Source: a virus (taxonomy: Duplodnaviria > Caudoviricetes). Taken from it: DNA of 36,727 bases. The notes under the pieces were generated by a model. It made no database searches. It had not been told where the DNA came from and saw nothing but the letters and a program-made list of their open reading frames with translations. The position numbers and the translations under genes are program-made. Positions within the stretch are counted from its first letter, which is position 1. Each line of letters begins with the position of its first letter. The stretch is from positions 1 through 36,727 of IMG/VR virus record IMGVR_UViG_3300020043_003766; one strand, given 5' to 3'. This document shows positions 18,827-36,727 of this stretch, piece by piece.

Positions 18827-19030
18827 CTCTGACCACCGCTCAGCCCAATGTTTGTAAGGGTTTGACCAAAAGGTGGTCAGAGAGGCACGTAAAAAACATA
18901 GCTTCCCTAGAAAAATATTTTTCAAAATCCCATTTTTTTTATTTTGTAGTTCTGGAAAAGTCTTTGACTTTCTCTGACCACCTGACCACCTTTTGCCTTG
19001 CGCCCAATGATAGCGCGCCTTTAGAGGTGG
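18827..19030. repeat. Iteron-like repeats, putative replication origin
   Basis: CTCTGACCACC at 18827 and 18972, inverted at 18872-18882, and CTGACCACC at 18982. GCCCAATG occurs twice, with an AT-rich spacer between units. Directly downstream of the primase gene. Confidence 0.65.
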
Positions 19031-24118: not shown

Positions 24119-24266
24119 TTGGCTTTATAATTGAATGTCTTGATAGTTCATACTGCTCGGCAACTTTGATATATTCCCTCATTTTGTCGCGCTCTTCGAT
24201 GTTTGTAATCATAAAGCAGGCGTTGTAAATGTGCAGGGAGATCGTTTGTTCTGGTAGGTCAATCAT
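24069..24266 (-). CDS. Hypothetical protein (allele of 13365..13562)
   Basis: Near-identical protein. Confidence 0.65.
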   Translation of the reverse strand: MIDLPEQTISLHIYNACFMITNIEERDKMREYIKVAEQYELSRHSIIKPNDYRLFTTIQQSETRE

Positions 24267-24607
24267 TGCTCACCTCCTCCGTAGGTTTGTTCGTAGTATT
24301 GTTCTGCTATTTGTAAAGGATACCCTTCAGTTTGATTGCATTGCCCTTCATAATGAGCATCAATAATTCTTTCCTTCTCCATTGCTTTGGCTTTGTTATA
24401 CCCAGTAATAAAAGCATTTCTTTCTGAATTACTAAATGGATAAAGTTTCATCGCTAATTCTGCAATATCCACTGCCGTTTGGTGTTTATTGTTTGTCATA
24501 TCAATATTTTTAACATAATCTATCTTTTGTGCAAATGTCATAGGTTCGCTATTGCTAAATTGATTGTTAGGGTTTTCTTGTGGGGGTTGTTGGTTATTGT
24601 TTGTCAT
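24263..24607 (-). CDS. Modular hypothetical protein (MTNN..., internal MTNNKHQTAV, AKAMEKE, YEQTYGGGEQ)
   Basis: ORF track; carries shared blocks. Confidence 0.7.
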   Translation of the reverse strand: MTNNNQQPPQENPNNQFSNSEPMTFAQKIDYVKNIDMTNNKHQTAVDIAELAMKLYPFSNSERNAFITGYNKAKAMEKERIIDAHYEGQCNQTEGYPLQIAEQYYEQTYGGGEQ

Positions 24608-24831
24608 AGTGTTTGCTCCCTTGCGAAAATTTTAAATGTGTTTCCTTTACCATCGTCAAATACAAGATTTGAATAACATGTATTATCAAGTTTGATAATC
24701 AATTCTTTTTTTCCTCCAATTGGTTTGGATATTGGTATTGGATTATCATCATTGAATTGAAATACCCATTCTACATTGTCATAAGTTGCAATTCCGATTG
24801 GCACTGCCGTTTGGTGTTTATTGTTTGTCAT
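24604..24831 (-). CDS. Modular hypothetical protein (MTNNKHQTAV...)
   Basis: ORF track; ATGA overlaps. Confidence 0.7.
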   Translation of the reverse strand: MTNNKHQTAVPIGIATYDNVEWVFQFNDDNPIPISKPIGGKKELIIKLDNTCYSNLVFDDGKGNTFKIFAREQTL

Positions 24832-25124
24832 TGCTCACCTCCTCCGTAGGTTAATGGAACTTCAATTACCTGCACTCCGCAATGGTCTGCGTTATCCCAT
24901 AAAGTAGAATCATCACAATTTAGAATCTCTAATAAATGTCTTGCTTCTTCTTCCGTTGTTTCTTTAGTATTGTAGATGATGAGAGTTCTTTTTGTTTCTA
25001 ATCCTCCCAATGACCTAATATGGTTTTCTATAATTCCATCAATTACGCTTTCATTGTATTTTTCAATGTATGTTTTCATTGATATCATTGAGTTTAATAC
25101 TTGTTGTTCTGTGTATAGTTTCAT
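24828..25124 (-). CDS. Modular hypothetical protein (MKLYTEQQV...TYGGGEQ)
   Basis: ORF track; carries shared blocks. Confidence 0.7.
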   Translation of the reverse strand: MKLYTEQQVLNSMISMKTYIEKYNESVIDGIIENHIRSLGGLETKRTLIIYNTKETTEEEARHLLEILNCDDSTLWDNADHCGVQVIEVPLTYGGGEQ

Positions 25125-25294
25125 TGCTCACCTCCTTTGTATGTTAAAATTTCTTTTTTATTAAATGTAATTTGAGTAAGATTCCAACCGTCCTTATCAA
25201 AAATATTTAATTCAAACCTATCTGCAAATACAATTTTCATTATTGCACTTATCTTATAAATAAGTATCAATGTTCTATTTTTAATTACTCTCAT
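25121..25294 (-). CDS. Modular hypothetical protein (57 aa, ends TYKGGEQ; not in track)
   Basis: MRVIKNRTL...KEILTYKGGEQ*; ATGA overlaps on both sides. Confidence 0.65.
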   Translation of the reverse strand: MRVIKNRTLILIYKISAIMKIVFADRFELNIFDKDGWNLTQITFNKKEILTYKGGEQ

Positions 25295-25509
25295 TTGTTA
25301 CCTCCGTATGTTTGTTCGTAGATAATTTCAATGTCTTTATCTTCGATATTTACAACATCTATAAATTCCTTAGCAAATTCAATCATCTGCTCCTTCTCCA
25401 TTTCTTTGGCTTGTTCAAAAATGTCACCTCTTTTTAAGGAATGCCATTCTGGTTTACGTGTTTGTTTTTCCAACCACTCCACCGCCGTTTGTTGTTTATT
25501 GTTTGTCAT
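25291..25509 (-). CDS. Modular hypothetical protein (MTNNKQQTAVEWL...EQAKEMEKEQ...YEQTYGGNK)
   Basis: Start reassigned to the repeat ATG at 25509. Confidence 0.75.
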   Translation of the reverse strand: MTNNKQQTAVEWLEKQTRKPEWHSLKRGDIFEQAKEMEKEQMIEFAKEFIDVVNIEDKDIEIIYEQTYGGNK

Positions 25510-25676
25510 TTGTTTTCTATATGATTGTACGTTAACTGACATACCCAAGCGTTTTCTAGTTCGTAAATCCCACAAGTCAATAACGCATTATCGTAATCTT
25601 CAAATATCTTCACATTGCCATCGGGATCTTTGAAAAATTCTTTGCTGATAATGTCTACAATGATGTATTTAGCCAT
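25506..25676 (-). CDS. Hypothetical protein (56 aa; not in track)
   Basis: MAKYIIVDIISKEFFKDPDG...NHIENK*; fills the gap with overlaps. Confidence 0.65.
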   Translation of the reverse strand: MAKYIIVDIISKEFFKDPDGNVKIFEDYDNALLTCGIYELENAWVCQLTYNHIENK

Positions 25677-25923
25677 TGTTACCTCGTTGTATTAGAAAAT
25701 GCATCAATTTTGCACCAAATAAAAATCCCTTGTCCCATTCATCCATTAATCCATGAAGCGGTTTAATTCCATTTTTAAGTATTTCCTCATCACTTGGTAG
25801 TTCGATGGGGGTTAGTGAGTTTACAATATCACATTCTTCTGATGTTATTAGATAATGATATTTGTCTGCCATTTGAATAGCCTTAAATACTTGTTCTTCT
25901 GTGTATAGTTTATTGTTGCTCAT
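25669..25923 (-). CDS. Modular hypothetical protein (MSNNKLYTEEQV...LTPIELPSDEEI)
   Basis: ORF track; combines two shared start blocks. Confidence 0.7.
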   Translation of the reverse strand: MSNNKLYTEEQVFKAIQMADKYHYLITSEECDIVNSLTPIELPSDEEILKNGIKPLHGLMDEWDKGFLFGAKLMHFLIQRGNNG

Positions 25924-26137
25924 TGTTATGTAAATTAATCCAGTCGTTAAAAGTTATAGTTGGTAAATTATTTATTACACAATTTGTTATGAAAGTTGCG
26001 TAATGTTCTGCTTGTTGTTTTTGCATTGCTTTGGCTTGTTCAATAACCATTGAAAAAAAATGCTTTTGCTCTTGCGTTAGTGATGGTTCAATAAAGGATA
26101 ATAACCACTCAACGCTACTTTGTTTATTGTTGCTCAT
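25910..26137 (-). CDS. Modular hypothetical protein (MSNNKQSSVEWL...EQAKAM)
   Basis: ORF track; carries shared blocks. Confidence 0.7.
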   Translation of the reverse strand: MSNNKQSSVEWLLSFIEPSLTQEQKHFFSMVIEQAKAMQKQQAEHYATFITNCVINNLPTITFNDWINLHNNEQQ

Positions 26138-26370
26138 AGTCCTGTTGGTTTAGTTAAAGGTTTGTTTAAATCCACATTCGCTGTGTCAGTGCTTGTCATC
26201 ATAAGCAGTGTTGTTTTCCAATGTATCTCACTTTCTTCTGTGATTTGTTCTTTACAAAATTTAATGATTGACAAGTACACCCCTTTGTGAATACTTGAAT
26301 CGTTGTCCATTTGTTTTTGGCAAAATTCAATGATTGAATCCACTGCCGTTTGTTGTTTATTGTTTGTCAT
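26134..26370 (-). CDS. Modular hypothetical protein (MTNNKQQTAV...)
   Basis: ORF track; shared start block. Confidence 0.7.
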   Translation of the reverse strand: MTNNKQQTAVDSIIEFCQKQMDNDSSIHKGVYLSIIKFCKEQITEESEIHWKTTLLMMTSTDTANVDLNKPLTKPTGL

Positions 26371-26740
26371 CTTCTTCTTGTATCAGTTTAAGGTAATACT
26401 TGTGTTGGTATTTGTTTGATGTGTCTACCACCAACTCGTGTTCTTCTCCGCAGTGACTGCACTCTTTGTTTTCCTCAATGTACTCTTGGATGTCGTGATT
26501 GTCCGGCTCCCAATCCTCGTAGGATTCGCGGTCCGTATCAACATTTAGTTTCAAACACTTGCAACACTTCCAACTCATGGACATGTTGTATGTTATCTTC
26601 TCGTTGAGGTTGACTTCTACAGGGCTACCATTCTCCGCTTCGCTGAGAGCGTTCTTCAGTAATGCGATCTGCATCTTGTTGCCTATCTCTAATGGGACTT
26701 CCTTTCCGTCCACATAGAATTTTCCATTGCGTAATATCAT
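26357..26740 (-). CDS. Hypothetical zinc-binding protein
   Basis: CCKC and CSHC pairs; acidic. Confidence 0.65.
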   Translation of the reverse strand: MILRNGKFYVDGKEVPLEIGNKMQIALLKNALSEAENGSPVEVNLNEKITYNMSMSWKCCKCLKLNVDTDRESYEDWEPDNHDIQEYIEENKECSHCGEEHELVVDTSNKYQHKYYLKLIQEEDDKQ

Positions 26741-26958
26741 AGGTTTATGTCATCAAGTAGTTCGCTTTCCTCATCCTCGAAGTATGAGTCATTAAAGTAT
26801 TTAGCCATGTCTCCATGCAACTCGAATGGCTGAGGCTTTTTGATTGATGCGACTCTGTTACGCAACAGCATCTTGAATGCATTGCGAACGTGTTGGTCGG
26901 TCATGTCATCCACGTTGATGACAACACCGGCCCGAGTGGTCCAGTAAAGATTGTTCAT
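26737..26958 (-). CDS. Hypothetical protein
   Basis: MNNLYWTTRAG..I.VDDMTD.H.RN; start reassigned; TATATTTG -7 box at 26990-26997 upstream. Confidence 0.65.
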   Translation of the reverse strand: MNNLYWTTRAGVVINVDDMTDQHVRNAFKMLLRNRVASIKKPQPFELHGDMAKYFNDSYFEDEESELLDDINL

Positions 26959-27013
26959 AGTTCTCCGATAAGATTTGCTTTTGTTACTACAAATATAATA
27001 CAAAAGTATTACA

Positions 27014-27187
27014 TCACTTTATTGATTCTTTTATTTTTTCTTTTAATTCTTTGAGTTCTTCCAACCACTCACCAAGCACTACAATTTTCTGCGGATCTTC
27101 AAACCCGTATCGTTCTTGAACGTCTATGTTCTCTTCAATCTGATCAATGATTGTGTGTAGTCTTCTGAATATTTCTTGGTGTGTCAT
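27014..27187 (-). CDS. Hypothetical protein
   Basis: MTHQEIFRRL..., helical; a palindrome copy lies immediately upstream. Confidence 0.6.
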   Translation of the reverse strand: MTHQEIFRRLHTIIDQIEENIDVQERYGFEDPQKIVVLGEWLEELKELKEKIKESIK

Positions 27188-27319
27188 GGTAGTAAGTGTC
27201 TTCAAAGACACTCAGAACTTCCCTGTTTTGTTGAACAGCATAGCGTTCATGCACTGCCGGTCCAACCAACAAAAGAAGTTCCAAGTCTTTTTGATTGCTT
27301 TAATCATGTTCAAATATAA

Positions 27320-27727
27320 TTAACCGAATACAATTTCTCCCATCAACAAGTATTGGAACACAGCATCTGCATCTTCTGCGTCAAAGTCCTCGTTCAATAT
27401 GTTGATCAAACAACCAAGCACTCCCTTGTCGTTGTGTATCGTGAGCATGCGTTGGGCGATTAGGTCGCGGGTCAATACCCCGAGTTGGTCTCCGCTCTCT
27501 ACATCTTTCACCGGTACCTTGACATTGTATTCATGGATGGCTTTCCATGTGGCCTCAGAGAATGATCCATTGGGCACCGCGTTACGGATGGTATCGCATG
27601 TCTTGTTCGACAGGTAGGCCCAGTAGTTACTGCCACCCTCGAGTGCCGTAACGAATAGGTCTTCCATTGTTTGATAGGCGATGGGTAACATCACCATTAG
27701 TTCTTTTTGTTCAGTGTTTGCTTTCAT
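27320..27727 (-). CDS. Hypothetical phage protein
   Basis: TALEGGSNYW...DAEDADAVFQY..GEIVFG; co-oriented gene run. Confidence 0.75.
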   Translation of the reverse strand: MKANTEQKELMVMLPIAYQTMEDLFVTALEGGSNYWAYLSNKTCDTIRNAVPNGSFSEATWKAIHEYNVKVPVKDVESGDQLGVLTRDLIAQRMLTIHNDKGVLGCLINILNEDFDAEDADAVFQYLLMGEIVFG

Positions 27728-27890
27728 CTTTTTCTTGTTTTAGTTTGTATAATGCTACCATTGCGATGAATAGGAACGACAACCCTATGCCACCGGCTAT
27801 GATTTGTGCAGTGATTGGATAGTGAACGATGCACCACCCGTAAAGTAATCCGCTAAGGATTGTCGTAAATACTATCGCAAAGTTTCTCAT
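27711..27890 (-). CDS. Small two-TM membrane protein (59 aa; not in track)
   Basis: MRNFAIVFTTILSGLLYGWC...IIAGGIGLSFLFIAMVALYKLKQEKDESKH*. Confidence 0.65.
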   Translation of the reverse strand: MRNFAIVFTTILSGLLYGWCIVHYPITAQIIAGGIGLSFLFIAMVALYKLKQEKDESKH

Positions 27891-27895
27891 GGTCT

Positions 27896-28090
27896 CTAGC
27901 TGATTGATTTGTAGATACGAGTTGAGCCATCGTCCATGATGGACATCTGAGGTTTGAACTTTTTCATTGCAGTTTGCACCGTGTCGATGAACCGCTCTCT
28001 GTTGTCGGAGTCCAGGTACAACAAGCGATCGATGATCTCTTGCACGAACTCGCGCCTCTCTTCTACCGATGTAATTCTTTTGCGTCTCAT
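27896..28090 (-). CDS. Hypothetical protein
   Basis: ATGA overlap in the minus-strand run. Confidence 0.6.
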   Translation of the reverse strand: MRRKRITSVEERREFVQEIIDRLLYLDSDNRERFIDTVQTAMKKFKPQMSIMDDGSTRIYKSIS

Positions 28091-28365
28091 ATGCGGTCCT
28101 CCTTTTCTATCTCCTTGTTGTCAACCAATAGCACATCACCAAGCAGGAGAATGCCAGCCATGCTTGTCGCTATTGGGTTAGGTTCCAATCCAATCAGCGC
28201 TGCGTCTTCGTTAACGCAGAACGTCATGTCAAGATTTGTACGGACATACTCGATGTACCCACCGACTGCCTTTTGCTTTTTGTTTAGGTCTGATGCGTCA
28301 TACTTGTCGATCACATCACCGTGTCTTGTAATTAGTATTGCCATGTTCTTAGTGTTTGATTTCAA
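28087..28365 (-). CDS. DUF3846-like protein
   Basis: QKAVGGYIE, VNED...L.PN..AT and L.GDVLL pattern. Confidence 0.7.
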   Translation of the reverse strand: MKSNTKNMAILITRHGDVIDKYDASDLNKKQKAVGGYIEYVRTNLDMTFCVNEDAALIGLEPNPIATSMAGILLLGDVLLVDNKEIEKEDRI

Positions 28366-28837
28366 ATTCTACATAATCTTTGTCGAGACTCCGGCGAGCC
28401 AAGACTTTGTAATCGTCATTGGTAATCTCAGTCAGCGCACCATACGAGTAGCCATCGGCACCATACTGGGATTGGTTGGTAATATACGACATCGCACAAT
28501 ACCACTTGTCTCCCGGCTTGATTATCTTGTACTGCTCTCTTGGCATACCCTGTACTGCTTTGTCATTCCTGTAATCTTCGCCATCGAAGAAACCAATCTG
28601 CTCGCTATGCACCTTGATGATTAGCTGATCAGGCGTCGACAGCATGATGCGTGAATCCTCATGTGTGGCTTTCAACTCTTGGATGTTCATGCTTAAATCG
28701 AACGACACATCAACACACCACACACCCTTGCGGACACGCTCGAATACTAAGCAATCTACTGTGTCGCTGACGACACAAGGATCTGATACCACCATGATGC
28801 CTGACTTGTTAATAAACTTGAATCGTAAGTTAATCAT
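28349..28837 (-). CDS. Hypothetical protein (DUF4241-like SDPC motif)
   Basis: SG.MVVSDPC, V..G.W, V.S.QIGFFD and YGADG. Confidence 0.55.
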   Translation of the reverse strand: MINLRFKFINKSGIMVVSDPCVVSDTVDCLVFERVRKGVWCVDVSFDLSMNIQELKATHEDSRIMLSTPDQLIIKVHSEQIGFFDGEDYRNDKAVQGMPREQYKIIKPGDKWYCAMSYITNQSQYGADGYSYGALTEITNDDYKVLARRSLDKDYVEFEIKH

Positions 28838-29160
28838 CTTCCTCCAAATATTGAAAAGTTATTTGTCATTGCCAGTGTAATGATTGAATTAGTTGTGTCT
28901 TCTGATACCAATAAATCACGCTTCAATATGTCCTCGTCGAAGTACCTTGAGCATAGCACATACCGCACCAACTCTGCCTCTATGTACTGATTGATTCTCA
29001 TGCGCACCTCGTCACTGGCTTCCTTGTACAAACTTCTTTGCTTTACAATTGATACCGCGTAGTTTACCTCGCGAATTAATAATGATTCTAAATCTTTTAT
29101 TGTCATATGTCTTCTATTAATTAACCTTCCCAAAGCATGATCGTTCCCGGATCGTGCCAT
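28834..29160 (-). CDS. Hypothetical protein
   Basis: ORF in the minus-strand run; the real start is probably the internal MTIK. Confidence 0.55.
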   Translation of the reverse strand: MARSGNDHALGRLINRRHMTIKDLESLLIREVNYAVSIVKQRSLYKEASDEVRMRINQYIEAELVRYVLCSRYFDEDILKRDLLVSEDTTNSIITLAMTNNFSIFGGR

Positions 29161-29372
29161 TCAAAATACCATCCATTGATCTCTACAAAATTGTGGAGTT
29201 TAGGATTGACACCAAAGGTATCGTACCACCTCTCGCTGTGGTAGTTGAACCATTGGTCGGTGCCCTCTGCCGATATCCAAACACCGCCAATGGCGCCGTT
29301 GAATTCTTCGGTGATGCCCACCACATTAACGCCCTTCTCTTGAAGGGATTTGATAATTTGTTTCCTTGTCAT
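29121..29372 (-). CDS. Hypothetical protein
   Basis: GVWISAE...FGVNPKL...GWYFEWHDPGT. Confidence 0.7.
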   Translation of the reverse strand: MTRKQIIKSLQEKGVNVVGITEEFNGAIGGVWISAEGTDQWFNYHSERWYDTFGVNPKLHNFVEINGWYFEWHDPGTIMLWEG

Positions 29373-29374
29373 AG

Positions 29375-30103
29375 TTATGAGTGATTGAAAATGTATACTG
29401 ATTTACTACCCTTCCCTCTTACACCACTGCACAGCGCACACTTACTGCATGTACTCTTGAAGCCAGCCTCGCTTGATGCCGGGCAGTTGACCATGCCGTC
29501 GTGCTTGGTGTGGGTGCTGTCGTCCATGAACGCGCGCCATCCCATCGTCTCTGCTGTCTTGGTCTGCTCTACATCATGCGTCGATGCCATAAAGAAATCT
29601 CGGTAGTAGTACGCCCATGGCTTGTCCCATTGGTGTGTGTACCCCGACCATGTCTTGGCTACCACTGAGATACATCTCAACAATGAGATTGGTATGAGTG
29701 ATGGCTCGCCATAGGTACCGAACCGTACATACCTTCTGTTGCACATCGCCACCACATCCGCACCGATCTGATCGCTGTATTGTGGTATGTCGTCCCATGA
29801 TTGGTATTGGTTACCGATGCTACGCAGTTGCGATAGCATACCCGAATACTGCATCCGCTTGTGAGTGTAGCAACCCTTCAACTCTGCGCCATTGCTCATT
29901 GCATACGGGCAGTCCAAACATACATCGCCGTCCTTGCTGAAGAACGATTGCATGCTCGTCTTGGATTGTGCATTCTCAAACTGATCTCTACTGTAGTGGT
30001 AGGTCTGAATGATCTTCTCACCTTTGGGTGCGATCTTGTCGTTCGTGGTCTTGTCCAAACGGACAACACACAGGGTGTCCCCGATAATAAATTCAGTTCT
30101 CAT
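29375..30103 (-). CDS. Cysteine-rich phage protein (GP88-like, possibly Fe-S or Zn binding)
   Basis: CLDCP...CY, VRFGTYGEP, GYTHQW, FMAS and CPAS...TCSKCALC; start reassigned to MRTEF at 30103. Confidence 0.6.
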   Translation of the reverse strand: MRTEFIIGDTLCVVRLDKTTNDKIAPKGEKIIQTYHYSRDQFENAQSKTSMQSFFSKDGDVCLDCPYAMSNGAELKGCYTHKRMQYSGMLSQLRSIGNQYQSWDDIPQYSDQIGADVVAMCNRRYVRFGTYGEPSLIPISLLRCISVVAKTWSGYTHQWDKPWAYYYRDFFMASTHDVEQTKTAETMGWRAFMDDSTHTKHDGMVNCPASSEAGFKSTCSKCALCSGVRGKGSKSVYIFNHS

Positions 30104-30184
30104 GTTTGCTTTTGTTTTTTTGTGTCTTCGAAGACACGACACTGAGCAACCAACAAAAGATGCCGTGTCCTCTCCAACACAATA

Positions 30185-30216
30185 CAAAGGTAATACAATT
30201 CTTCTACAATTCCAAA
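30185..30216 (-). promoter_or_regulatory. Bacteroidota-type promoter
   Basis: TTTG-N20-TACCTTTG on the minus strand; a palindrome lies about 50 bp downstream. Confidence 0.8.
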
Positions 30217-30238
30217 TTGCATCCCCATTTGTACACGG

Positions 30239-30463
30239 TTATAGACTGTCGATGTCCTCCAATCTTGATTCTTGTTCGTCCAAGTAGTCAGAATAGTAAT
30301 CGAGCAGTTCCATTGTGTAGTCGGGCTCGAGCCCTCTGTCTTGCAATATCTCTTCTGGGTCTGCCCCATGGTCAATGAGCCTACACATCGTGCGTATCTC
30401 GCTCGCCGCGTCGCACTGCCCGTAGTCATCCTCCCGGCATAGTGCTTCTAATAGTGTCATCAT
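30239..30463 (-). CDS. Small acidic hypothetical protein
   Basis: G.DPEEIL...GLEPDY motif; very Asp/Glu-rich. Confidence 0.7.
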   Translation of the reverse strand: MMTLLEALCREDDYGQCDAASEIRTMCRLIDHGADPEEILQDRGLEPDYTMELLDYYSDYLDEQESRLEDIDSL

Positions 30464-31161
30464 GATAAGTTATGTTGGTCTAATAATTCTTGTGGTACGG
30501 GTTCGTATTCGCTGTAGTCGTAGTAGTAGCCGGCCTCGACACCTTCTCGGACAGGGCTTTCGCATATATCACTCATCAACTTGGTGATCTGTCCGTTGTC
30601 GGTTTCGATGCCCGTACCTTCCCACTCCGGTGCTTCGTACTCCTCGAACAGTTCGAACACCCCATTCTCGTACTGCACATAGCCACCCCACCCCTGCTCT
30701 TCCTCGTAGTGGAGGATGAAGTTGGGAAAGTCCACCGCCAATGCCTCCAATATGATCAGATTGAATGGTGCCCATGCCGTGCTGAATCGAATCGTGTCGC
30801 CATCCACCTCGTGGTCGTAGCATCCCCACTTGGTGCCCCAATTTTGGAACGCCCAGTCATACCAATTATCCACCCCATACTTGCGCATCAACTCCACCTG
30901 CATTTTCTTGGTGATGACCTTCTTCCTGCGTACGCCATACGGATCGTCCTCATCGGTGATCTTGGCATTCTCCTTCATGATTTTGTTGTACTCGCGCTGA
31001 GTTACCACCTTCGTTGGCGATGTGGTATTACGAATGTCGTCCGGCATGGGTCGATAGTACCCACACAATCCGTTAAGTGTTGAGGCAATGACCTCAAGTT
31101 TCTGTCTCTGCTCGTCACTCAAATCCGTGAACGAGATCCTGTTGTAAACGTGGTTTGGCAT
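30460..31161 (-). CDS. YubB/DUF1281-like ferredoxin-fold protein
   Basis: MPN...N.I, WYDW...NWGTKW, F.TAW.P and FP...L.YEEE.G motifs. Confidence 0.75.
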   Translation of the reverse strand: MPNHVYNRISFTDLSDEQRQKLEVIASTLNGLCGYYRPMPDDIRNTTSPTKVVTQREYNKIMKENAKITDEDDPYGVRRKKVITKKMQVELMRKYGVDNWYDWAFQNWGTKWGCYDHEVDGDTIRFSTAWAPFNLIILEALAVDFPNFILHYEEEQGWGGYVQYENGVFELFEEYEAPEWEGTGIETDNGQITKLMSDICESPVREGVEAGYYYDYSEYEPVPQELLDQHNLS

Positions 31162-31165
31162 AGTG

Positions 31166-31681
31166 TTATCTATTTATTTTGTGGTATAGTTGGGTGATGG
31201 CGTTCTTGAATGTATCTCCTTTCATTAGGCCATCGAGTGAAGGGTACTCTATGGTTCGGATGAAATACTCTAAGGTTGGCATCAGTTCGTACTGGCGCAG
31301 TCCGTTCTTGGCACGAAACAATGTTGGTGCTTTCGCGCTGATTGTGAACCGCTCGTCGTACCCTTGAGTCTTTCCGAACCAAACAGTTTCACCGCAATAG
31401 TCCGAGCCGGGGCTCCTGTGAAGCGGATCGCAGTCCACCTCAATACCCAACTTCTCGCACTCGGATATCAAGTACTTCATGTCCTGCTCGAATTGCTTGC
31501 TCAACTCCGCATAGATGGCTCGGTTCTTGATTTCAATGGCCTCGAAGTCACGCTTGGTCTGATTGATTTCGTCGAGCAAAATGTCCGCGAATGATGTTGG
31601 CTTGGGGTAATCGTTCATCGCCATAAATTCTTCCGTAATCTTGGCGATCAGTTGTTGTTGGTTTTCAGTTAGTTGGTTCAT
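31166..31681 (-). CDS. Hypothetical protein
   Basis: 171 aa ORF in the co-oriented run. Confidence 0.7.
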   Translation of the reverse strand: MNQLTENQQQLIAKITEEFMAMNDYPKPTSFADILLDEINQTKRDFEAIEIKNRAIYAELSKQFEQDMKYLISECEKLGIEVDCDPLHRSPGSDYCGETVWFGKTQGYDERFTISAKAPTLFRAKNGLRQYELMPTLEYFIRTIEYPSLDGLMKGDTFKNAITQLYHKINR

Positions 31682-31862
31682 AATGTTGTCCTAGTTTGTC
31701 CCATAAGTTTGCTCGTAAGCCTACTTCTAAATTGTCTACATACACCTCGATGCATTCATCGAGTTGCTCGTTCCATACTTCGACGCACACGCCGAATACG
31801 GTGTTTTCTGCGGTGAACCCCTTACTTTGGTACCACGCCACTGCTTTTTGTTCCTGTGTCAT
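31665..31862 (-). CDS. Hypothetical protein
   Basis: ATGA overlap. Confidence 0.65.
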   Translation of the reverse strand: MTQEQKAVAWYQSKGFTAENTVFGVCVEVWNEQLDECIEVYVDNLEVGLRANLWDKLGQHYEPTN

Positions 31863-32092
31863 ATCGTGTGAATTAATACGGCTCCGCTTTCGTTTTGGTA
31901 GAACATGGCTCCGCCGTCGTTGCCTTCGTCATCTGCTTGTGGGATGAGAAGAGATCCGTCAGTGAACCTGATTACGAGTGGTCTGCTATGCCACCCTGCC
32001 TCGTCCGCTTCTTCTTTGGTCATGTAGCGTACGCTTGAGATTTTCTTTGTCGCTAAGAACATGAAGTTGTTTGCGTATTGTTGGTCTGTCAT
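31859..32092 (-). CDS. Hypothetical phage protein
   Basis: VRYMT.EEA...GW..RP.VI.F.DG....P..DDEGN.GG motif. Confidence 0.7.
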   Translation of the reverse strand: MTDQQYANNFMFLATKKISSVRYMTKEEADEAGWHSRPLVIRFTDGSLLIPQADDEGNDGGAMFYQNESGAVLIHTI

Positions 32093-32643
32093 GATAGTTG
32101 GTTTAAGATTTGTTGTTTGATTTCTTCAGTTGTTATCCGTGTTAGGTATGAGTCCAATTCATCCTTGAGTCCGCTTGTCTCGTGGTCGTATCCGTAGTAC
32201 CCATAGCATGAATCAATCTCCTCAGTGTCTTCGAAGACACGCACCCCATACACCTCGCCGTTAATGTAGTGAGCGAACTCCTTGAGTTCTTCGGTGACAT
32301 TGATGTATGCCTCGTGTGCATTGCCCTCGTTGCTGACGATGAAGCCAACTTGCCCCGAGTCGAATGGGCACTCGAACGAATTGACTGATAATGCCACACC
32401 GCCATGGTCGTACATGTACACTGGGTACACCCACTTATACTCCTTGTCCAATGCATCCTTCATTTCGTCCCACGATGCGTAATCGCCGTGTCTGATACCT
32501 ACCTCGTTCGGAAAGAGGTAGTGTTTGTGGAACATCACGAACTTGGTCGCATTGTCCCATGAGCGTGGGCTGTCCGCAAATTCGTCGCAGATAATCTCTA
32601 CCGAGATGTTTTCTACCTTGATTTCTTGTTGTGTCATAATCAT
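32089..32643 (-). CDS. Acidic hypothetical phage protein
   Basis: SPR.WDN, YMYDHGG..LS, FDSGQVG and DSCYGYYG; contains the palindrome in-frame (VFEDT). Confidence 0.75.
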   Translation of the reverse strand: MIMTQQEIKVENISVEIICDEFADSPRSWDNATKFVMFHKHYLFPNEVGIRHGDYASWDEMKDALDKEYKWVYPVYMYDHGGVALSVNSFECPFDSGQVGFIVSNEGNAHEAYINVTEELKEFAHYINGEVYGVRVFEDTEEIDSCYGYYGYDHETSGLKDELDSYLTRITTEEIKQQILNQLS

Positions 32644-33314
32644 TTTGTGTCTTCGAAGACACTTCTTTTGGTCATCATATCTATTAACTCGTCACTTGTG
32701 TATGTGATACTCGGATCGTCCGAGTCCACCGCTTCGATGAACCCCTCGCGTAGATCTTCGTCAATCTCATAACTGTCCATGTACTCACGCAAGTATTCGT
32801 GTATGCTATACTCCTCGTGTGTGGTGAACAACTTGGCATTGGTGTACCCACCCCGTGCATCGCACCCACCATGGATCTGCAACAGCAAGTACACGTCGCC
32901 GTTGATTTCAACCCAACTGCCCTGCAGTATCTGCGATAGATCCGAGTCTCCGTTGTAGGTGTTGAATGTGTACCCCACTTTGACCTCGAACTTGGATTTG
33001 AGCCAATCCCATTGTGCCTTGCTCACACCATACACCTCGTCATCCGCATCCCAATCCCTGCATGGCATGGCGTTGAACTCCTCACATATCCAGTCCGTGT
33101 CCAACTGCGACAGGAAGTGGAACACCGATACAGTTCTCTCCAAATAGTTGCCACTCTTGTGGTAGGTGTACATCTCCTCGGGTTCGTTCTCGAAGTCTTC
33201 GATCGTCCGTGCTTGGTTTCGCTCCCATGCCCTGCCGTATGCACCCCCACTATCGAGGGGGTGACGGCCGGTGTTCTCGGTGAGCATGTCGAAAATTAGT
33301 TGCTTGATTCGCAT
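32640..33314 (-). CDS. Acidic hypothetical phage protein
   Basis: MLTENTG...LDSGGAYGR.WERN, NTYN..S.LSQ.LQ and QIHGGCDARGGYT; ends in the palindrome (SVFEDTK). Confidence 0.75.
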   Translation of the reverse strand: MRIKQLIFDMLTENTGRHPLDSGGAYGRAWERNQARTIEDFENEPEEMYTYHKSGNYLERTVSVFHFLSQLDTDWICEEFNAMPCRDWDADDEVYGVSKAQWDWLKSKFEVKVGYTFNTYNGDSDLSQILQGSWVEINGDVYLLLQIHGGCDARGGYTNAKLFTTHEEYSIHEYLREYMDSYEIDEDLREGFIEAVDSDDPSITYTSDELIDMMTKRSVFEDTK

Positions 33315-33631
33315 GACAATTCATCTCTTAAGTTAACCATCAACTGATAAGCCCAATCCTTGATTGTGCCTTTAACAGAGTATTCCCATTCCAACTCGAC
33401 TGATATCTCCATTCCACATACACTTGTGTCCATCTCCACCATGTCCGTGAGATACATGTCTGACCTGAAGTTTTCCGACATCTCCTCTGCGATGCGTCGA
33501 ATCACCTCGTCGGTGAGTGTCATCGAAGACACTTGTGTTGCCTTGGCTTCTGCAAGTAATGCTTGCATCTGCTGTAAATTTGCCTCGGTGCGTTGCACCA
33601 TTTCTTCCATGATTTGAATTTGGTTGTTCAT
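33296..33631 (-). CDS. Hypothetical protein
   Basis: Coiled-coil N-terminus; palindrome variant in-frame (VSSMT). Confidence 0.65.
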   Translation of the reverse strand: MNNQIQIMEEMVQRTEANLQQMQALLAEAKATQVSSMTLTDEVIRRIAEEMSENFRSDMYLTDMVEMDTSVCGMEISVELEWEYSVKGTIKDWAYQLMVNLRDELSCESSN

Positions 33632-33643
33632 ATTTTTTTTGTT

Positions 33644-33943
33644 TTAATTGGTTGCGTTTGTTGTGTCTTCGAAGACACTTTCTTTCTCATATTCTACAAG
33701 TGGCTTGTCAGTGCCGTCAACTTCGTTGAACACTTGTATTAGTTCGTTTACATACGTCACATAGAAGTCGGGATGGAACATGGATATACGCCCATTGGCC
33801 GTGTCTTCCCTGTCCTTGGCGTAAATTGCCGGGATTTGTTCCACCAACTCCATCGTGTCGTGCTGAAGCCTCTGCATTAAGTACGATGCGTAGATCGGAT
33901 GCATGTTTCGGATGGCTTTCGCCAATTTGTCTTGTGATTTCAT
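33644..33943 (-). CDS. Hypothetical protein
   Basis: Start reassigned to MKSQD (ATGA overlap); palindrome near the 3' end (SVFEDT). Confidence 0.65.
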   Translation of the reverse strand: MKSQDKLAKAIRNMHPIYASYLMQRLQHDTMELVEQIPAIYAKDREDTANGRISMFHPDFYVTYVNELIQVFNEVDGTDKPLVEYEKESVFEDTTNATN

Positions 33944-34269
33944 GATTTTAGATTTCTTAATAGTAGTTCTACTTTTGATAGTTGTTCTAAGTTCCATATT
34001 ATACCGTCTCTGCTGTCTAACTCTGAGTTGTACTCAATCTCTAATTGATGTTGTGCGTTACCCACAGCGAGAATCATCTCATTCAATTCGGTGTCTGACA
34101 AATCCGCCTTTGGCGTCTTTGTGTCTTCGATGACACTTTCTGTTAGTATTCCACCCCACTCAAGTGCCAACTTCTCCAAGCATGGAAGCAATGCCATATA
34201 CACCCACTCATCTTGGATCGTAGCCACGCATTCCGCATGGACGCTCGTTTCTATATATACTTTTATCAT
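33940..34269 (-). CDS. Hypothetical protein
   Basis: MIKVY.E...HAE.VAT...E..Y...LP.LEKLA; palindrome variant in-frame (SVIEDT). Confidence 0.7.
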   Translation of the reverse strand: MIKVYIETSVHAECVATIQDEWVYMALLPCLEKLALEWGGILTESVIEDTKTPKADLSDTELNEMILAVGNAQHQLEIEYNSELDSRDGIIWNLEQLSKVELLLRNLKS

Positions 34270-34727
34270 TACAATAAGCCCTCCTCGGCCATGGATGTGT
34301 GTGAATCTAATGTGAGAATGATGTGGTCTACCAACTTGATGTCAAACAATTCAAGCCCACGCTTGACACGATCGGTAATTTGGATGTCCGCATCCGACGC
34401 CTGTGTCTTGCCACTCGGGTGGTTGTGCATCATAATCACTGCGGTTGAATTGCACATGACCGCACCTTGCACCAAGCCCTTGATGTCAACCACCGTGGAC
34501 GTGGTGTTGCCCTTTGACAACTGCAAGAACCCAATGGGGCGGTTCGCATTGTTGAGATACCCCACCCACATTTCTTCGTGGTGTTCCATCACGTCTTCGG
34601 GAAAGATACCACGAAAGAAGTTCGCCGCGTGTTCGGAGTTCCTAATCTGAGTTTTGATGAGTTTCTCATCCAAGTTGGTGCGTCGGTATCCAATACTGAC
34701 CTCACCCAAGAACCATTTGTTTTTCAT
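34269..34727 (-). CDS. RadC-like JAB-domain protein
   Basis: EE.....LN.AN, S.G....T.VD and HNHPSG...S.AD..IT......L.DI.L.DHII (JAMM motif); lacks the N-terminal HhH domain. Confidence 0.9.
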   Translation of the reverse strand: MKNKWFLGEVSIGYRRTNLDEKLIKTQIRNSEHAANFFRGIFPEDVMEHHEEMWVGYLNNANRPIGFLQLSKGNTTSTVVDIKGLVQGAVMCNSTAVIMMHNHPSGKTQASDADIQITDRVKRGLELFDIKLVDHIILTLDSHTSMAEEGLL

Positions 34728-34757
34728 ATGTTGCTTTTGCTTTGCCTTTGGTTACGG

Positions 34758-34967
34758 TCACTCGGTGCTTGCACCGTGTGATTGTGTCTTCGAAGACACT
34801 TTGTCTTTTATTTCTTGTGGCGTTTCCATTACACGTATCGTGCCTATCATCGTGGATACGATGGAGCCAGTGCCGTCTTCGTTTGATACATAGTAAATTG
34901 CCTCGGGGTTTACCAATACTCTTTGGATACCACCACTTGCCATGATTTGTTTGAGTGTGATTAACAT
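34758..34967 (-). CDS. Hypothetical protein (possibly FlbD/SwrD-like)
   Basis: MLITL...VLVNP..I.YV...V.ETPQEI pattern; start reassigned to 34967. Confidence 0.55.
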   Translation of the reverse strand: MLITLKQIMASGGIQRVLVNPEAIYYVSNEDGTGSIVSTMIGTIRVMETPQEIKDKVSSKTQSHGASTE

Positions 34968-35221
34968 AATTGTTTTGTTAGTTGGTTGGTGTGGGTTTCG
35001 ATTAAACCATAGGCGTTGCATACATCCTTTGCGAATACTTCTATCTCAATTTGTGTCTTCGAAGACACTTGCTCGAGTAAGTAATAATCGGCGATGGTTT
35101 GTAACATCTCCTTGTACATACACACAGCCCGTTCACGGGTGCATTTGTTGAACGTCATCAACTGCATGATGACCTTTTCTGATAGTGTCTTCGAAGACAC
35201 TTGATTTTGTTGGTTATTCAT
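34961..35221 (-). CDS. Hypothetical protein, first gene after the tandem promoters
   Basis: Contains two in-frame palindromes (QVSSKT twice). Confidence 0.65.
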   Translation of the reverse strand: MNNQQNQVSSKTLSEKVIMQLMTFNKCTRERAVCMYKEMLQTIADYYLLEQVSSKTQIEIEVFAKDVCNAYGLIETHTNQLTKQLC

Positions 35222-35243
35222 AGTGCTGTTTATTAGAACAATA

Positions 35244-35275
35244 CAAAGATACTACAAAGGTATGACACTACCAAA
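35244..35275 (-). promoter_or_regulatory. Bacteroidota-type promoter
   Basis: TTTG-N20-TATCTTTG on the minus strand. Confidence 0.8.
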
Positions 35276-35414
35276 TCTAACTGCGGATAATCCACAGCCA
35301 TGAACTTGCCTTGCCTTGTTGACGTGTCCGCATCGTTTCGATGCGTCCTTGTGTCTTCGAAGACACTTGCCATGATTAATTTGTTGCGTCTTGCCATGCC
35401 TTAATTGAACAATA

Positions 35415-35446
35415 CAAAGGTACTACAAAAATACTACATTGCCAAA
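35415..35446 (-). promoter_or_regulatory. Bacteroidota-type promoter (tandem copy)
   Basis: TTTG-N20-TACCTTTG on the minus strand. Confidence 0.8.
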
Positions 35447-35777
35447 TCAAATGGCGATCCATCCACGGTTATGAACTGGCTGTGCCTTGCCATATAAACC
35501 ACTGCAAAACGGGTTGCAAATTTTATGCGTCCTTACCTTTCCGCTTCGCGTCTTTGTGTCTTCGAAGACACTTTCCACCATATGCGGACGCAATGCGAAG
35601 CGATGCAATGCGAAGCGAAGCGGACGCGTCGTATACTTTCCACCATCAAAATGATGGGCTATTTTAAGCCCATTTTAGGCGATGAAATACGGCGTTAATA
35701 GGTAGGTATACCAAAGGGAAAGATAGTTGTTTATAGGGCTTAAAATGGGGGACAAATTGAAGCCAATATAAAACAAT

Positions 35778-35857
35778 AAAGCCCCAATAAAGGGGCTATT
35801 GATTGGGGGGTAAATTGATAGGGCTATAAACAAAAATAGCCCCAATTACGGGGCTAT
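35778..35857 (-). terminator. Two tandem hairpin terminators
   Basis: AGCCCC-N6-GGGGCT at 35780-35797 and ATAGCCCC-N6-GGGGCTAT at 35836-35857. Each is followed by a T-rich tract on the minus strand, downstream of gene 35879..36541. Confidence 0.7.
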
Positions 35858-35878
35858 CTTTGTGGGTTGGTTGGTCGG

Positions 35879-36545
35879 TTACGCCGTCGCCGTTTCGGTT
35901 GCGGTCGGTTTCTTTTTTACCTCCTTTTTGGTTGCGGTCGGCTTTGCGGTCGTCGCCTTTTTGATGGCAAAGGTTGACAAAATCGAGGGTTTCAATACCT
36001 CATTGAAAAAGGCGTTTATCTCAATTAAGGTAAAATTGGTTTTGTGGGTGTGGTCGCTGTACATGGTGAGCGATTTGTTGCCCTCCTTGATTTGCCACAA
36101 AATCACTTTCCTATCTTCGCCATTGCTACGCAAATCGGCGATACTTTCCGTGTCCGCGTCCGCTTCGCCTTTGTGGTCGTCGAAGTTCTTCGCCCATGTG
36201 TTGAGGGCTTCAATAGAACGGGCAAAATCTTTGCCGTCTTTTTCCGCTTCATCGCATTTGTCTATAAACTTGTTTATCACGGGTTTGGGCAGTTCACCCA
36301 CCTTGATAAGTTTATAGTAATACGATTTTTGAAACCCGTAAACCATTTTAATAAGGTCGTCTTTTTTCGGCAATTCTTTAGAGGTCGCCCCGCCGTCCTT
36401 TAGTTTGTCCGTCGCAGTGGTACAAAAGTTGTTAAATTGCTCCTTTGTTTGTGCCAAAAGTTGGGCAAGTTCCAAAGACGTCATAAACCTTTGTTTTTCC
36501 GCATCATTCACCTTTGAGGTCAAAGATTTTACGGCTACCAAAGAA
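35879..36545 (-). CDS. Putative DNA-binding protein (HTH-like segment, Lys/Thr/Ala-rich tail), probably 5'-truncated
   Basis: DLIKMVYGFQKSYYYKLIKVGELPKPV and C-terminal KKATTAKPTATKKEVKKKP. The frame stops a few codons after crossing into the inverted duplication at 36546. Confidence 0.6.
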
Positions 36546-36727
36546 AGGGCTTATTGTAATGATAAAAGTATACATAGAAACGAGCGTCCATGCGGAATGC
36601 GTGGCTACGATCCAAGATGAGTGGGTGTACATGGCATTGCTTCCATCCTTGGAGAAGTTGGCACTTGAGTGGGGTGGAATACTAACAGAAAGTGTCATCG
36701 AAGACACAAAGACGCCAAAGGCGGATT
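36546..36727 (+). repeat. Inverted near-identical copy of 34101..34282 (contains a partial copy of gene 33940..34269 from ATG 36559)
   Basis: 182-bp reverse-complement match with about 3 substitutions seen by eye; runs to the window end. Confidence 0.92.

Follow-up and report, generated by a model that had tools for sequence, protein, structure and literature searches.

In our analysis of a 36,727-nucleotide stretch of viral DNA (IMG/VR record IMGVR_UViG_3300020043_003766; Caudoviricetes), hereafter the window, we examined a 16-bp palindrome repeated 12 times between positions 27196 and 35571. Comparison of sequences across relatives indicates that it is a real site, common to a whole phage group, for which the first early gene encodes a well-supported candidate reader. 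The palindromes are very probably the binding sites of this first early protein, because their spelling co-varies with its predicted helix-turn-helix. The candidate gene lies at 35879..36541 on the minus strand and encodes 220 amino acids (aa) here and 246 aa in the closest relative; a junction near 36546 cuts its 5' end and removes the upstream site along with about 21 N-terminal codons. The predicted helix-turn-helix (36296..36364, minus strand; model helices 53-61 and 65-75; YGFQKSYYYKL) contains the residues that co-vary with the site. A sequence-only reading of the window had suggested an undescribed phage site/protein pair, which agrees with the finding of a candidate protein, one with weak ParB/KorB-like features. 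Topic searches of the literature, with subscription papers and supplements outside their coverage, returned no description of the site or the protein, and a string search for three spellings returned two unrelated papers only.

The linkage between gene and site was examined from three directions. When IMG/VR was scanned for exact matches to the motif, 91 stretches turned up, spread over 49 contigs; 44 of these contigs have one or more proteins in common with the complete relative G001, and for four of the remaining five only 340-616 bases were available. The candidate gene is conserved in 19 motif-fetched relatives, with a site 16-258 bp upstream in 18 of them and, in the nineteenth (G001), its own site variant 77 bp upstream. 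Loci were also fetched by the candidate protein alone, using a search pattern in which the helix is fixed. Of the best 80 of 88 confirmed loci, 79 have the site, and at least three copies are present in 75, compared with one match in 1.06 Mb of shuffled control. Loci fetched by a neighbouring core gene (the best 80 of 470) included 24 with the candidate gene, of which 20 have at least four sites, one has a different palindrome and three end at or just past the gene. Ten loci without the candidate gene extend 7.5-10 kb past the core gene, and nine of them have no repeated palindrome (six of these ten loci were checked on gene maps). The complete genome G012 and the cultured phage elemoA have neither gene nor site.

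For the covariation analysis we used 80 homologues of less than 90% identity, 77 of which have GTGTC-N5/6-GACAC in the fetched DNA (69 T-type and eight G-type, the latter spelled GTGTC-G). Phenylalanine or tyrosine occupies helix position +5 in 67 of the 69 T-type cases and in none of the eight G-type cases. Helix +5 and +2 are the two most spelling-informative of 212 alignment columns. It was DNA spelling or capsid homology, and not the helix, that led to the G-type cases; most single matches of the spelling scans were unrelated. Phenylalanine or tyrosine at +5 is the common state of the family (96 of 150 listed representatives). A first rule, by which serine or threonine at +2 marks the G-type, was dropped as it held for only five of the eight. 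Near-minimal pairs occur in which FEKS-F-FHK accompanies T-type sites and FEKS-Q-FHK accompanies G-type sites. On a tree computed with the helix masked (47 rows after thinning of T-type rows), the G label requires seven changes, of which at least five are forced, and grouping of the G-type rows in one clade is rejected; three of the changes are T/G sister pairs inside the window's own clade. From these sequences, the G-type switch appears to have arisen at least four times.

Two genomes are indicative of how protein and site may change together. The first, L299, has a wholly different helix; GAGAGTTYRAACTCTC occurs seven times and GTGTC-N6-GACAC is absent from the complete genome, so the helix of L299 seems to go with GAGAG arms, a further pairing beyond the T/G switches. 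The second, G001, carries G-type sites of 15 bp near the gene, nine in all, including sites orthologous to the window copies at 32647, 33663, 35053 and 35185, and retains the old spelling inside genes at 32225 and 33517, interleaved with the new. This arrangement points to a genome caught in transit, its sites being rewritten in place. This intermediate shows how a many-site system shifts its specificity, and together with the near-minimal pairs it makes the recognition code and the purpose of the system testable with short oligonucleotides and one small protein.

Several observations weigh against the assignment of the palindromes to this protein. The +5 rule has two exceptions, L002 (tryptophan, with 17 T-type sites) and L269 (one site), and the T-type loci were mostly fetched by the helix-fixing pattern. 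The G-type helices of the window's clade may go back to a single origin and have been spread by recombination, which would give four origins instead of seven. The relative G011 (L241:6385-11341; G011 44225-49186) lacks the gene and carries AGGTTCAC-N4-GTGAACCT seven times between early genes, which shows that arrays are possible without the candidate protein. The structural and profile matches of the protein are weak as well. The only VIA fold matches spanning the domain are KorB and Spo0J, at Z 4.3-5.3 and amid generic helical matches (1r71: Z 5.0, root-mean-square deviation (rmsd) 3.9, 102 residues aligned; 8qa8: Z 4.3, rmsd 3.4, 74 aligned; Spo0J 1vz0: Z 5.3, rmsd 3.8, 103 aligned). Foldseek returned no match for the protein, and hhalign placed it in register with the ParB helix-turn-helix at E 0.09-0.14, inside the shuffled range.

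In the AlphaFold model of the candidate protein (domain predicted local distance difference test score, pLDDT, 91), conserved N-terminal helices are followed by a two-helix unit with the shape of a helix-turn-helix, then by a loose linker and a C-terminal domain of three strands plus a helix. We take this last domain to resemble the dimer domains of P1 ParB and SopB. The family comprises 356 clusters at 50% identity. Searches of Pfam and of PDB sequences gave no family, no ParB Pfam match was obtained in 18 or in 42 members, and a ParB-like PHROG match appeared in one of 42 members (E 0.0035); the Atlas lead was DUF3102, and four unnamed viral proteins matched in BFVD. The G[EH]RR CTPase motif is present in none of 84 homologues. 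Because the fold and profile matches are weak and the CTPase motif is lacking in these homologues, we do not class the protein as a ParB, to which the model bears a weak likeness. The suggestion that the sites serve loading and spreading of the ParB type, driven by cytidine triphosphate (CTP), is therefore not sustained; no ParA was found among 100 proteins scanned. A tblastn search with the candidate protein against cultured phages gave no match; it also missed the homologue in MW202828, which a hidden Markov model (HMM) search detects at 7.5e-36, and its blank thus shows no absence. In genome_contigs no match to the candidate family was found. Another candidate reader was rejected: a conserved protein of 150 aa, encoded next to GroES and labelled 'repressor' in the MW202828 annotation, is 98% identical between G001 and L005 despite their different sites and is also found in relatives without sites. 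In a G-type lineage (L188:5538-6212 and L484) a site lies inside the candidate gene, with only four sites in the genome.

The site has the consensus GTGTC-TTYRAA-GACAC (16 bp) and occurs in about 8-17 copies per phage. Half-site position 6 accounts for 97 of the 127 mismatches in 429 distinct sites. The conservation had been attributed to the DNA and not to the peptide, and the alignment of orthologues bears this out with fixed synonymous positions and two alternative places and frames. In 17 helicase orthologues, the site is at one place and frame in four and at the other in ten, and no orthologue has it at both. All ten with the second place use invariant codons for Val, Glu and Asp there, and the flanking Leu is spelled by four codons. 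A similar helicase peptide occurs without the site in G012, a genome that lacks the system. Among the 429 sites, 62% lie between genes or across gene ends against a background of 20%, and 136 are deep inside open reading frames (ORFs), with two frames nearly equal. In one relative (L001-L004), which has 17 copies, the flanks often lengthen the palindrome to 20-24 bp.

A perfect stem is possible, the flanks lengthen the stem in some relatives and the sites gather at gene boundaries; conceivably, the palindrome could then be an RNA hairpin, or a selfish or recombination-spread repeat. We regard this as very improbable. On the sense strand, the asymmetric centre is found in either orientation (187 against 81), which points to double-stranded DNA, and the sites are retained whichever way a gene runs and in two frames. 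There is no Rfam match and there are no common flanks, and such a repeat would leave the covariation with the helix unexplained.

A second explanation places the reader in the host, with the palindromes as decoys or docking sites for a protein such as ParB, Noc, MatP or a LexA-like factor. A 16-bp dyad with a central CG does resemble parS-type sites, and the array of G011 stands without the phage gene. Nevertheless, the search of Bacteroidota chromosomes that had been proposed gave no multi-copy array in 300 genomes; one or two matches were found in 39 of them with one mismatch allowed, those listed were all mismatched, and the number was about equal to that of the reversed control. A scan of about half of genome_contigs gave an estimate of 260 stretches in 596 Gb, with no excess over chance, and the sole multi-copy contig among the matches listed was a phage of this group. 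The Bacteroidetes SOS motifs in the available part of one account differ (PMC8565304), and the spelling follows the phage gene. Titration of a host factor, raised in the sequence-only reading, thus finds no backing, and we consider a host reader scarcely credible. The same source gives GGTT-N10-AACC for Geobacter LexA (PMC8565304), and the G011 palindrome fits this pattern, perhaps by chance. In a Pirellulaceae metagenome-assembled genome (MAG; L310, G007), the exact window spelling occurs once on each of five contigs.

In the window, all 12 copies were confirmed, nine perfect and three with one mismatch, as had been counted from the sequence; shuffled windows gave a mean of 0.08 matches even with up to three mismatches allowed. 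The gaps are irregular and tighten in the way that had been noted (2926 and 2103 on the left; 269, 132, 166 and 205 among the last five). The first copy (27196..27211, centre TTCAAA) precedes the ATG at 27187 by 9 bp, and the perfect copy at 30122..30137 lies 18 bp upstream of the ATG at 30103 and 46 bp downstream of a predicted -7 box. Eight copies do lie inside ORFs, which have homologues in relatives, and several of these are in the last codons. They comprise a perfect copy in a conserved 184-aa gene (32225..32240, read as VFEDT), a perfect copy in the last codons of a 224-aa gene with the next ATG 4 bp on (32647..32662), one-mismatch copies in a 111-aa ORF (33517..33532) and a 109-aa ORF (34121..34136), a perfect copy at a gene boundary (33663..33678), a perfect copy in an ORF tail 57 bp upstream of a RadC/JAB gene (34784..34799), and two perfect copies in an 86-aa ORF (35053..35068 and 35185..35200), the latter 42 bp downstream of a predicted -7 box. 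The perfect copy at 35351..35366, 47 bp downstream of a predicted -7 box, falls in a doubtful 54-codon ORF, and the perfect copy at 35556..35571 is about 310 bp downstream of the candidate gene. Oriented flanks (T before, TT after) are present in seven of the 12 copies and are no trait of the group. The RadC-like JAB gene (34269-34727) belongs to the early region, directly downstream of a site, and is also found in G001 and G005.

We then considered what the sites are for. The site had been read as a mark of the first-expressed genome segment, which is partly right. The sites are densest where the early region opens and become fewer with distance along the genome; they are not confined to this region, and complete relatives have sparser copies genome-wide, in middle and late genes as well. 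In G004, the distances from the gene are 0.02 kb (upstream), then 1.1, 2.7, 4.8, 8.7, 15.6, 20.6, 23.6, 36.5, 43.6 and 52.2 kb. Promoters were predicted with the consensus of a Bacteroidetes-type -7 box. Such boxes lie at 35242..35262 on the minus strand, with like pairs at 35413-35433, 30183-30192 and 26988-27008; the predicted early promoters at 35242-35262, 35413-35433 and 26988-27008 have two -7-like boxes each, 11 bp apart. Twelve sites follow a detected -7 box at a distance of 0-59 bp, where 3.4 were expected, and none lies within 80 bp upstream of such a box, where 4.6 were expected, both being small numbers; three window sites are 42-47 bp downstream of -7 boxes.

Since the sites avoid promoters and lean downstream, a road-block or distance silencer fits better than a classical operator, and on this ground we give about an even chance to silencing of early genes from many sites as the main purpose. 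Three observations speak against simple repression: the copy before the gene is about 130-200 bp upstream of the -7 box in most relatives (by eye), no more than about 23 of 420 sites have a detectable promoter nearby, and sites are found in late genes as well. In the silencing scheme, the first early protein would be made first, from host-type promoters, and would bind as a dimer, as suggested by the palindromic site and the predicted C-terminal beta-beta-beta-alpha domain. As it accumulates, it may block RNA polymerase just past early promoters and at gene boundaries, by a mode that would be like that of stoperators or KorB operators minus the CTP clamp, and this hold would reach the whole genome through the few sites that middle and late genes contain.

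The avoidance of promoters would also be expected if the same protein and sites have a physical purpose, such that the protein coats, loops or anchors the first-entering genome end for compaction, nuclease shielding or positioning of replication. The steadily widening spacing away from the gene in G004, and the restriction of helicase genes to a single site, found at one of two places, which suggests selection on spacing and not on a promoter, argue for this purpose, as do the full-domain fold matches to Spo0J and KorB only and the conserved N-terminal helices. It remains rather unlikely in our estimate, as the CTPase motif and ParA are lacking in the proteins scanned, the intergenic excess is threefold with a lean to just downstream of promoters, and relatives manage without the system. 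A bolder version is that of a lytic group with its own CTPase-less, ParB-like organiser, whose first protein coats the incoming genome via graded self-sites; the helix/site switches would then be distinct self-tags by which each phage marks, shields or positions its own DNA in co-infection. We offer this as a speculative and unlikely scenario.

The repeated switches among close relatives, with the three T/G sister pairs of the window's clade, could also be read as heteroimmune groups, in which the protein represses a resident phage and superinfecting phages of the same spelling. Stoperator systems diverge likewise, according to the available part of one report (PMC6550527). An immunity or carrier state is nevertheless improbable. 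With short ORFs and part of G005 left out, no integrase or ParA was detected by Pfam among 100 proteins (71 of G001 and 29 of G005), and none appears in the MW202828 annotation; genome_contigs has no homologue of the protein. Moreover, one spelling is retained across proteins only about 25% alike, which is slow for an immunity locus.

Among known systems, the accounts of which were available to us in part, the 17-bp dyad repeats of Cluster O mycobacteriophages are alike in their fixed arms, variable centre and genome-wide distribution with a denser end, and in being about one-third coding, without orientation, without integrase or parAB and mostly off promoters (PMC4351075). They differ in sequence and host phylum and in number, with more than 30 copies there against 8-17 here, and no binding protein is named in the available part of that account, whereas the candidate here co-varies with its site (PMC4351075). 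Repeats of the Cluster O type lacked a known reader, for which this widespread aquatic group offers a candidate together with natural specificity switches. The stoperators of Cluster A likewise have many sites per phage protein, mostly off promoters, with consensus and protein diverging together; unlike the 16-bp palindromes here, with no integrase found in incomplete scans, they are 13 bp, asymmetric, oriented and of temperate phages (PMC6550527). No sequence link was found between the Cluster A repressor and the candidate protein. The ParB/KorB family shares a 16-bp palindromic site in several copies, and KorB of plasmid RK2 acts at its OB site near or far from promoters and gives the weak helical-domain fold match (PMC11790492). 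KorB is a CTP-dependent sliding clamp working with KorA and a partition ATPase (PMC11790492), whereas the candidate is about 200-250 aa, without the CTPase motif and with no ParA found. The switches may also provide orthogonal pairs of binder and 16-bp site that are not present on host chromosomes.

The phages of the group are uncultured aquatic podophages of 55-65 kb with GroEL/GroES and a crAss-type muzzle domain. Their capsid protein is 71% identical to that of MW202828 and 40-50% identical to those of Maribacter, Flavobacterium (elemo) and Cellulophaga phages. At the protein level, homology in cpn10, GroEL and the capsid makes a placement in Pervagoviridae possible. The chaperonin-coding, Pervagoviridae-like flavobacterial podophages (Calle, phi38:1, Elemovirus) are alike in GroEL/GroES, structural gene order and capsid (40-50%) in the available part of their description (PMC8776804), and cultured elemoA differs from the group in the lack of gene and repeated palindrome. 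By blastn, the early region has one match of only 70 bp to cultured phages. A simple pattern search found no RNA-polymerase motif in four giant virion proteins. Runs containing the window stretch are mostly lake and other freshwater samples, and two RNA runs contain only a small share of it. One member is binned in a Cytophagales MAG, with all eight motif matches of that genome on a single phage contig; the host of the group is probably a member of the Bacteroidota.

Relatives without the candidate gene have repeats of other kinds. In L238, L280, L285, L288, L300 and L303 we observed oriented, non-palindromic repeats of at least 12 bases in 4-8 copies, with a spelling that differs per member, and in L288, L300 and L303 the early region opens with a different gene of 122-136 aa.

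The window itself is a chimera, and only about 26.3-36.55 kb of it comes from the motif-bearing phage. Motif-bearing relatives align to 26339-36551 alone, two at 95% and a third at about 75%. The copies do not depend on one assembly, since the 95% relatives and a 9,096-bp contig from another run (over 26349-35351) independently contain the early region. The left and right parts are different genomes; consequently, nothing follows from the lack of motif copies in the first 27 kb, which had been offered as a contrast. The left part encodes siphovirus tail genes and, outside the motif-bearing genome, two inverted (head-to-head) copies of a helicase/HNH/primase replication module of another phage (13360-18454 and 19032-24271; 87-90% identity), with the right-hand primase copy truncated at 18939. 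At the right end, 36546..36727 is an inverted copy (182 bp, 98%) of 34101-34282, a contig-end artefact; it carries a thirteenth palindrome (36692-36707), which is not an independent site. The joins are probably assembly errors or amplification chimeras. Among contigs listed from four runs, none spans 24.3-26.3 kb into the left module. Comparison of the window with itself and with relatives marks 24263..26370 (minus strand) as the likely chimeric junction zone, where synteny with motif-bearing relatives ends and small genes are repeated. These AT-rich genes open with near-identical MTNNK(Q/H)QTAV codons and have 25-33 bp repeats in common, and many contigs from other runs end or join in this zone, a likely source of chimeras or of real shuffling.

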